A stretch of 40,640 bases of DNA from a virus: positions 1-40,640 of the IMG/VR virus record IMGVR_UViG_3300028025_000004; one strand, 5' to 3'. Below, piece by piece: positions 14,943 to 15,761 of the stretch (position 1 is its first letter; every line of letters starts with the position of its first letter). The position numbers and the translations under genes were made by a program. Below the pieces are notes generated by a model. It was not told the origin of the DNA. It searched no databases and worked only from the letters and a program-made list of their open reading frames with translations.

Positions 14943-15761
14943 GTGGATACTACCGAAATCACTCATATCAGCCTTTGCTCAGGATACGGAGGCATTGACC
15001 TTGGACTCCGGCGAGTGCTCTCAAGCCTGCGCACAGTCGCTTATGCGGAGATCGAAGCCTTCGCCTGCGAAAATCTACTTGCGCGAATGGAAGGCGGGCA
15101 ACTTGATGCGGCTCCGATCTGGAGCGATCTCAAGTCTTTCCCTTGGGAGAGCTTTCGAGGTGTGGTGGACATCCTCTCTGGCGGCTACCCGTGCCAGCCA
15201 TTCAGTGCAGCCGGCAAGCGAGCAGGTGCAGATGACCCAAGACACCTCTGGCCGTTTATCTCAGCCGGAATTGCTGCAATGCGACCAACTATCTGTTTCT
15301 TTGAAAACGTCGAGGGACATATCTCGTTGGGGTTGCCCGACGTCATCGAAGACTTGTCAGGAATGTGGGTCTACGAATCTTGTGGGAATCCATCACAAGG
15401 ACAGAAACCCATTGAACAATTCAAACGAGAACTTGGTTACGCTTTGTGCCAGTTGTCATACGAAATTGCATTGGAAAGAGGGAAAGAAGCCGTGGAAGGA
15501 GCGGCAATCTTGCAAGGTTTGCGGGAAGCCAGCGAAGGGGCATGGGCTTTGTCTGATGCATTACCAGAGATGGAAGAAGTATGGCGATCCGCTCTTGACC
15601 AAAAGGTTTGGGAGAAGGGGTGCTATGTCGAAGCAGCCAGTCAAGGAAATCGCACAGACGAATTGCGCCTTCTTGGCAACGGAGTAGTGCCAGCGACGGC
15701 AGAGTTAGCATTCAAAACATTAATAAATGAAATCCAAAAAACTACCACCACAGCTTGTTAA
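14943..15761 (+). CDS. DNA (cytosine-5)-methyltransferase-like ORF lacking recognisable motif VIII/TRD; its centre is occupied by an out-of-frame HNH module
   Basis: Motif I LCSGYGGIDLG, motif IV GGYPCQPFSAAGKRAG, motif VI FFENVEG and motif X LRLLGNGVVP are present. There is no QxRxR-type motif between ENV and GNG. Confidence 0.65.
   Translation: MDTTEITHISLCSGYGGIDLGLRRVLSSLRTVAYAEIEAFACENLLARMEGGQLDAAPIWSDLKSFPWESFRGVVDILSGGYPCQPFSAAGKRAGADDPRHLWPFISAGIAAMRPTICFFENVEGHISLGLPDVIEDLSGMWVYESCGNPSQGQKPIEQFKRELGYALCQLSYEIALERGKEAVEGAAILQGLREASEGAWALSDALPEMEEVWRSALDQKVWEKGCYVEAASQGNRTDELRLLGNGVVPATAELAFKTLINEIQKTTTTAC
15232..15687 (+). CDS. HNH endonuclease nested in a different frame inside the methyltransferase ORF (start uncertain; the unmistakable HNH part begins at 15355)
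   Basis: The frame of ORF 14941..15687 encodes CQECGSTNLVGIHHKDRNPLNNSNENLVTLCASCHTKLH (HNH), followed by CKVCGKPAKGHGLCLMHYQRWKKYGDP, a Cys-x2-Cys...HYxRWxxxGDP extension common in phage HNH proteins. The first in-frame ATG upstream is 15232. Confidence 0.6.
   Translation: MTQDTSGRLSQPELLQCDQLSVSLKTSRDISRWGCPTSSKTCQECGSTNLVGIHHKDRNPLNNSNENLVTLCASCHTKLHWKEGKKPWKERQSCKVCGKPAKGHGLCLMHYQRWKKYGDPLLTKRFGRRGAMSKQPVKEIAQTNCAFLATE

Follow-up and report, generated by a model that had tools for sequence, protein, structure and literature searches.

The C5-methyltransferase locus of the phage genome analysed here is very probably a deletion remnant of a two-frame alpha/beta methylase gene that also harbored a hidden HNH endonuclease gene, a reading built on the observed anatomy of the locus, its homologies, the junction within it, and the selection for two open frames seen across the family. 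The window, i.e., the whole stretch of DNA under study, is virus record IMGVR_UViG_3300028025_000004, a complete genome of 40,640 bp with direct terminal repeats, in which the C5-methylase profile has a single match. Both designs, the two-frame methylase and the hidden HNH gene, have already been published; the window contributes a decayed example together with quantitative support for selection on overlaps. The features of the locus are listed in Table 1.

Table 1. Features of the methylase/HNH locus in the window
Feature	Position	Strand	Details
alpha' (truncated C5-methyltransferase large-subunit ORF)	14943..15761	+	frame A, GTG start, 272 aa
C5-methylase profile stretch, motifs I to VI	14961..15317	+	E 8.1e-22, profile positions 2-113 of 324
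Frame B ORF, beta N-terminus fused in frame to HNH C-terminal part	14941..15687	+	ATG start, 248 aa
Beta subunit gene remnant, N-terminal ~137 codons (MWILPKSL...)	14941..15354	+	overprinted on alpha motifs I-VI
Deletion junction CTTGTCAGGAATG	15353..15365	+	putative crossover of two imperfect 13-nt direct repeats
HNH nuclease core (CQECG...HHKDRNPLNNSNENLVTLCASCHTKLH)	15355..15471	+	frame B; identical or nearly identical to full-length relatives
C-terminal zinc-finger-like module of HNH protein (CKVCGKPAKGHGLCLMHYQRWKKYGDP)	15511..15591	+	CxxC...GLCxxHYxRWxxYG
Alpha motif X region (NRTDELRLLGNGVVPATAELAF...)	15648..15761	+	HNH ORF tail overlaps it to 15687

In frame A, the Pfam profile and an alignment with homologues together show motifs I, IV, VI, and X in alpha', as the original prediction had read them. 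PF00145 matches only residues 7-125 of the alpha' protein (profile positions 2-113 of 324, E 2.4e-20), and phrog_363 covers residues 2-141, motif X being reached by just a short C-terminal match (236-264). Aligned with 12 homologues, alpha' is nearly identical to them up to '...VIEDL' (nt ~15356) and resumes from 'NRTDELRLLGNGVVP' (nt 15648). Motif VIII of the homologues ('LGYRxTWGIFSAAECGAPHQRKRVF', QxRxR type) and the variable region are missing, in agreement with the earlier remark that nothing resembling QxRxR or a target recognition domain lies between ENV and GNG, where the HQRKRVF segment of the homologues is absent. The target recognition domain and motif IX are absent in both window frames. 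From position 15648 on, variation sits at the frame A wobble position, and selection therefore acts on frame A there. A blastn search against phage records returned a ~90-nt match around motif IV and nothing else.

Frame B lies at +1 relative to frame A, and both frames are open across their shared region, as first noticed, while the third frame of the window is closed. The ATG of the out-of-frame ORF, which the original prediction had overlooked, overlaps the stop of the upstream ORF as TAATG and opens a beta N-terminus whose start and sequence are conserved across all ~80 relatives. By sequence comparison, the first 137 frame B codons of this phage are thus not noise but encode a conserved N-terminus that belongs to a second methylase subunit (beta). 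The HNH nuclease proposed for this frame from 15355 onward is recognized by PF01844 at residues 139-177 (E 3.1e-5, 24.5 bits on a 128-aa sub-fragment; E 3.5e-4 and 21.1 bits on the whole frame B ORF, just under the cut-off of 21.4 bits) and by 15 HNH/endonuclease PHROG families, the best being phrog_1271 (E 6.7e-10). Profile and alignment agree on a beta-beta-alpha metal core with His-Asn-His and paired CxxC, and the Cys, His, and Asn columns of the HNH alignment are invariant, including in the window copy. The CxxC extension described between this core and the stop at 15687 corresponds to the zinc-finger-like module of Table 1, whose aligned Cys and His positions do not vary either. After synonymous-codon shuffling of the alpha frame, frame B of the window contained a mean of 3.5 stops and was open in 1.5% of shuffles; in the eight full-length HNH genes described below, the methylase frame was open in 0/500. 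The dual openness is not due to chance.

The relatives explain how such a locus is built. In ~80 related loci, frame B runs without a stop through almost all of the methylase ORF (240-573 codons), and frame C is broken every ~20 codons. A frame B ATG lies 2-5 nt from the alpha start in every IMG/VR relative examined (MWILPK, MTWILPK, MDTWILPK). Synonymous shuffling gave, for the whole overlap, 0 stops in frame B against 4.5 expected in 81/81 distinct relatives, compared with 14.4 against 14.7 expected in frame C. For the N-terminal domain, frame B had 0.10 stops against 2.6 expected, and for the region between motifs VIII and IX, frame A had 0.02 against 4.7 expected. Thus, the family possesses a second, alternate-frame ORF within the alpha gene that is kept open by selection, of which the window keeps the first 137 codons.

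Codon-position diversity indicates which frame is constrained in each part of the overlap. Variation falls on the frame B wobble position in the motif IX-like segment 'GKLNPRWVETLMGLPVGWTMPSC.SPVTI' and on the frame A wobble position from 'NRTDELRLLGNGVVP' (motif X) onward, where it reaches 0.5-0.7, and the switch between the two segments is sharp. In the N-terminal domain, third-position diversity of alpha is depressed (0.39 vs. ~0.65 in the single-coded motif X part). The alpha spacer has no amino-acid constraint outside an island, WPSRPG..WEPPRV, that is under frame A selection, and when the short form of alpha was folded, the spacer was predicted to be disordered: the AlphaFold model folds at residues 5-178 and 231-253 only, residues 179-230 having a pLDDT of 30-46. 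Structural matches of this model to M.HaeIII and M.HhaI span about 170-180 columns, which fits the large domain only.

The beta proteins of the relatives contain W-x-T-P repeats and a C-terminal end, LNPRWVETLMGLPVGWT, that resembles motif IX and is under frame B selection. In intact relatives the end reads '...LNPRWVCVLMNLPVFWVKP', and in L007 '...LMGLPIGWVRP'. A PHROG family annotated as 'DNA methyltransferase' (phrog_1008) matches frame B with an E of 1.2e-11. Searches started from single beta sequences or from a beta profile found nothing in Pfam, NCBIfam, or the PDB sequences, PF00145 included; hhalign of beta against a canonical C5 methylase aligned only 11 residues, 'PTI.A.(D/E)YKG', and AlphaFold returned a poor model (pLDDT 43). 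Beta relatives are numerous (23,927 cluster representatives at E<=1e-3); they have no Pfam domain and are named 'hypothetical protein', and in the ESM Atlas beta found only virus clusters with that same label. Pfam detected no methylase domain in ten beta relatives, mostly the longest ones, and therefore no in-frame canonical fusion was found. The beta segment may correspond to motif IX, as suggested by the phrog_1008 match, the resemblance of the motif itself, and the likeness to M.EcoHK31I described below. We also considered a single methylase chain that would need two ribosomal frameshifts, from A to B and back to A, but set this model aside: each frame is held open by selection in the part that the other one encodes, and by eye, there is also no evident slippery site at the switch.

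Several minor observations concern this two-frame gene. In phage C75C1 (L015), Escherichia phage HC6 (L096), and Synechococcus phage Yong-M2-251 (L098), an unannotated +1-frame ORF of 219-459 codons spans most or nearly all of the annotated C5 methylase gene. The products are of the beta type with W-x-T-P repeats and end with LNPxxVExLMGxPxGWT in C75C1 and Yong-M2-251, HC6 being more diverged. One beta-type protein (P0280, 796 aa) has two KGKLNPRWVETLMGLPVGWVMPSC modules and many W-x-T-P repeats, which suggests an internal duplication of the recognition part. The alpha frame is interrupted in two relatives, by an in-frame stop between ENVEG and HISLG in L005 (3169-3171) and by a frameshift after LGYRV around position 2500 of L039, frame B being open in both; these are either pseudogenes or sequencing errors.

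The HNH part of the window has homologues with 73-93% identity that are separate ORFs of 184-201 aa, and the full-length ones carry an extra ~75-aa zinc-finger-like part at the N-terminus that the window copy does not have. A complete HNH gene of 184-199 codons was found in the beta frame of seven IMG/VR contigs (L001-L007), in which the methylase core is intact. In all of these independent contigs it is a separate +1-frame ORF with its own ATG and with stops before it; in intact relatives this ATG lies 3-27 nt past the beta stop in the same frame. The gene is located after the motif IX-like segment of the beta frame and before motif X of the alpha frame; its tail overlaps alpha motif X, and there the pattern of codon-position diversity becomes that of frame A. 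No stop interrupts the methylase frame anywhere in the HNH gene, and the open stretch measures 285-632 codons (the value of 285 belongs to L006, which is cut by the contig end); wherever the contig allows, motifs I-VIII are joined to motif X in one open frame of 494-632 codons. The third frame is closed across the HNH region in all seven.

Synonymous-codon shuffling of the HNH gene was applied to eight copies, namely those of the seven contigs and that of Staphylococcus phage CUB-EPI_14. In 8/8 copies, the part of the methylase frame that runs through the HNH gene contains 0 stops against 7-11 expected, and 0/500 shuffles were open, whereas the other frame has as many stops as expected. Genuine overprinting, one of the explanations offered initially, therefore holds for the family, in which selection keeps the methylase frame free of stops through the HNH gene; the window copy, however, is only a truncated remnant of such an arrangement.

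The HNH gene is also better conserved than its hosts. Among the window and L001-L005, nucleotide identity is 79-95% for HNH, whereas the host N-terminal domains of these sequences reach 66-85%, and the window itself shares 84-94% and 74-84%, respectively, with L001-L005. Furthermore, the host N-terminus of L001 is 96% identical to those of L019 and L020, which have no HNH gene, and both observations are evidence that the HNH gene is mobile, the distribution among close host genes being patchy in the manner of a mobile element.

Two published systems cover most of this design. The first is the ShiLan domain, together with the Pacc40 insertion, a hidden out-of-frame HNH in actinobacteriophage DNA methylases (Arsenault, Gosselin, Gogarten 2025, PMC11855218). 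As in the window family, an HNH of ~195 aa with flanking zinc fingers occupies the other frame of a phage methylase gene (PMC11855218), the methylase frame is stop-free across the insert, no intron or intein signature was detected, and the distribution among close methylase relatives is patchy. In contrast, gp65, in which the ShiLan HNH resides, belongs to the N6/N4 amino-methylases (PF01555) and the host of the window family is a C5 enzyme, the HNH gene of the window family follows the stop of an overlapping beta gene in the same frame, and the window copy is 5'-truncated. The ShiLan HNH and the window HNH lineage are unrelated at a tblastn E of 1e-3. The family therefore adds a C5-methylase lineage to the splicing-free "hidden HNH" insertions, and the 0 stops against 7-11 expected give numerical support for the stop-free host frame.

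A further case was noted in Staphylococcus phage CUB-EPI_14 (ON325435.2), whose gp45 is annotated as a DNA-cytosine methyltransferase. PF00145 (E 2e-83) identifies gp45 as a canonical C5 methylase, and a 160-aa HNH ORF that lacks an annotation lies out of frame within it (L097:1807-2289). This HNH is 39% identical to the window HNH family, and the methylase frame across it has 0 stops against 11 expected. It differs from the window in that the methylase is a single-frame enzyme without beta, the insertion precedes motif IX instead of following it, and the copy is intact.

[quoted passage not shown] Alpha of the window family likewise has motifs I-VIII and X, a likeness of layout and motifs. 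Unlike in M.EcoHK31I, beta of the family starts beside the alpha start, overlaps almost the whole gene, and has variable numbers of W-x-T-P repeats, and in the window it is cut to its first 137 codons. By analogy with M.EcoHK31I, for which this has been demonstrated by experiment, the two frames of the family probably yield separate alpha and beta proteins that then assemble and would act as a heterodimer.

[quoted passage not shown] It resembles the window family in being a two-subunit C5 enzyme, and some relatives (L035, P0330) also bear motif X on beta; on the other hand, the description in PMC3404938 does not mention a whole-gene overlap. In L035 (3441-3986, plus strand) and in protein P0330, motif X (CDNRTDELRLLGNGVVPATA) lies in the beta frame past the motif IX-like segment, and alpha ends without motif X; judged by these motifs, this sub-lineage is an M.AquI-like division of the same two-frame gene.

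Comparison with homologous methylase genes, which the original prediction had proposed, accounts for the state of the locus: the core is intact in the relatives, and the window has undergone a separate deletion. The window tracks L001 up to 'GACTTG' and again from 'TCAGGAATGTGGGTC' onward, and both of these L001 sites share CTTG(G/T)CAGGAATG. Of the two CAGGAATG cores, one comes just after alpha motif VI and the second sits at the initial CxxC of the HNH core; the distance between them is 681 nt in L001 and 783 nt in L002, each a multiple of three. Missing from the window are motif VIII and the spacer of alpha, the repeats and the motif IX-like segment of beta, and the first 78-79 HNH codons including the ATG; the relatives thus have a complete HNH gene, with a start of its own and zinc-finger parts on both sides, and the window does not.

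The following course of events may be proposed. In the intact form, alpha (frame A), the catalytic large domain, has motifs I-VIII, a long spacer, and then motif X, and beta (frame B, +1), starting 2-5 nt from the alpha start, has the W-x-T-P repeats and the motif IX-like end. A selfish HNH endonuclease gene would have settled in frame B after the beta stop, with codons that let alpha be translated straight through, as in ShiLan-type hidden HNH genes. Illegitimate recombination between 13-nt imperfect repeats (CTTGnCAGGAATG) then very probably removed about 680-780 nt in frame in one event. This would have left alpha' without motif VIII, beta without its repeats and motif IX-like segment, and the HNH gene without its own start and N-terminal zinc-finger part, while joining beta(1-137) to the HNH core in a frame B fusion starting at the ATG at 14941, with both frames still open. 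The initial idea that an HNH had invaded the gene and replaced the methylase core is right about the outcome, an open but inactive shell, and not about the mechanism, as the core was lost later by a separate microhomology deletion. More generally, short in-phase repeats in such triple overlaps may provide a decay route in which in-frame deletions leave ORFs that are deceptively intact in appearance.

Because the window HNH part shares 94% nucleotide identity with L002 and L003 and retains every catalytic residue, the deletion appears to be recent. A search of 5.8 billion proteins found none with the window architecture. Neither remnant frame has gained a stop, and with the HNH catalytic residues intact, it is from the missing parts, not from visible decay, that we infer loss of function. 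The window methylase is almost certainly inactive because motif VIII, the recognition part, and the motif IX-like segment are all missing, and homing would have been lost with the N-terminal part of the HNH protein. For annotation, 14943-15761 is best labeled a truncated remnant, and 14941-15687 a fusion of the beta N-terminus to HNH whose function is doubtful, and the phage, judging from what is missing, would have no working C5 methylase. A second, independent remnant was observed in L008 (615-1321), where nothing but the HNH C-terminal zinc finger and alpha motif X is left, preceded by unrelated sequence, which shows that such deletions recur.

It is also worth considering whether the deletion product is a working new gene, that is, an active beta(1-137)-HNH nuclease under selection, engaged, e.g., in homing, exclusion of rival phages, or DNA processing, with alpha' retained as an AdoMet-binding shell in another role. 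In favor of this, neither frame A nor frame B has closed, the HNH core and the zinc finger at its C-terminal side agree with those of the full-length relatives, and the TAATG overlap favors initiation in frame B. However, a deletion between in-phase repeats leaves both frames open automatically, and the fusion is devoid of the N-terminal zinc-finger part conserved in all full-length copies. Moreover, an exact search of IMG/VR and JGI metagenome contigs found the junction nowhere beyond the window, giving no sign of persistence or spread. We consider a working fusion of this kind unlikely. The single occurrence of the junction, and its position within a repeat, could likewise be expected if two reads had been wrongly joined during assembly and the real phage had an intact three-gene locus. 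Yet the 40.6-kb record is a full genome that carries direct terminal repeats, a different truncated remnant exists in L008, and the shared stretch, 13 nt with a mismatch, is too short, usual assembly k-mer lengths being far above 13 nt; such an artefact appears improbable.

Even harder to credit is the proposal, made in part by the original prediction, that frameshifts or sequencing errors hide an in-frame methylase-HNH fusion, or that the HNH gene resides in a spliced intron or intein. The HNH gene does occupy the place of the methylase variable region, but the same frame relation recurs in the seven independent contigs, where HNH stays a separate +1 ORF with its own ATG and preceding stops, and we therefore reject frameshifts or sequencing errors as the explanation. 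With regard to splicing, no Rfam intron family was detected at E<=1, and the read-through product contains no intein/Hint domain, Pfam giving PF00145 only; in addition, the insert is almost wholly taken up by the HNH ORF and therefore offers no room for a ribozyme. The deletion remnant of a two-frame methylase with a hidden HNH gene is thus the explanation that we favor.

With respect to expression, since the HNH ATG lies just past the beta stop in the same frame, translation of the HNH gene by coupling to beta is plausible for the family, and the overlapping beta gene offers a plausible translation route for the nuclease. A stronger proposal, that the hidden HNH is made by termination-reinitiation on beta and that the direct beta(1-137)-HNH fusion of the window phage is still made and still cuts DNA, is tentative and on balance rather doubtful. 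If true, coupling would explain how such nucleases come to be translated, a question that the 2025 ShiLan paper left open.

Finally, another overlap of coding frames was noticed upstream in the window, where the plus-strand ORFs 13196-13744 and 13527-13991 (together 13196-13991) overlap by about 220 nt in different frames; ORF 13527-13991 has a weak excisionase/regulator match (phrog_66, E 3.7e-5).
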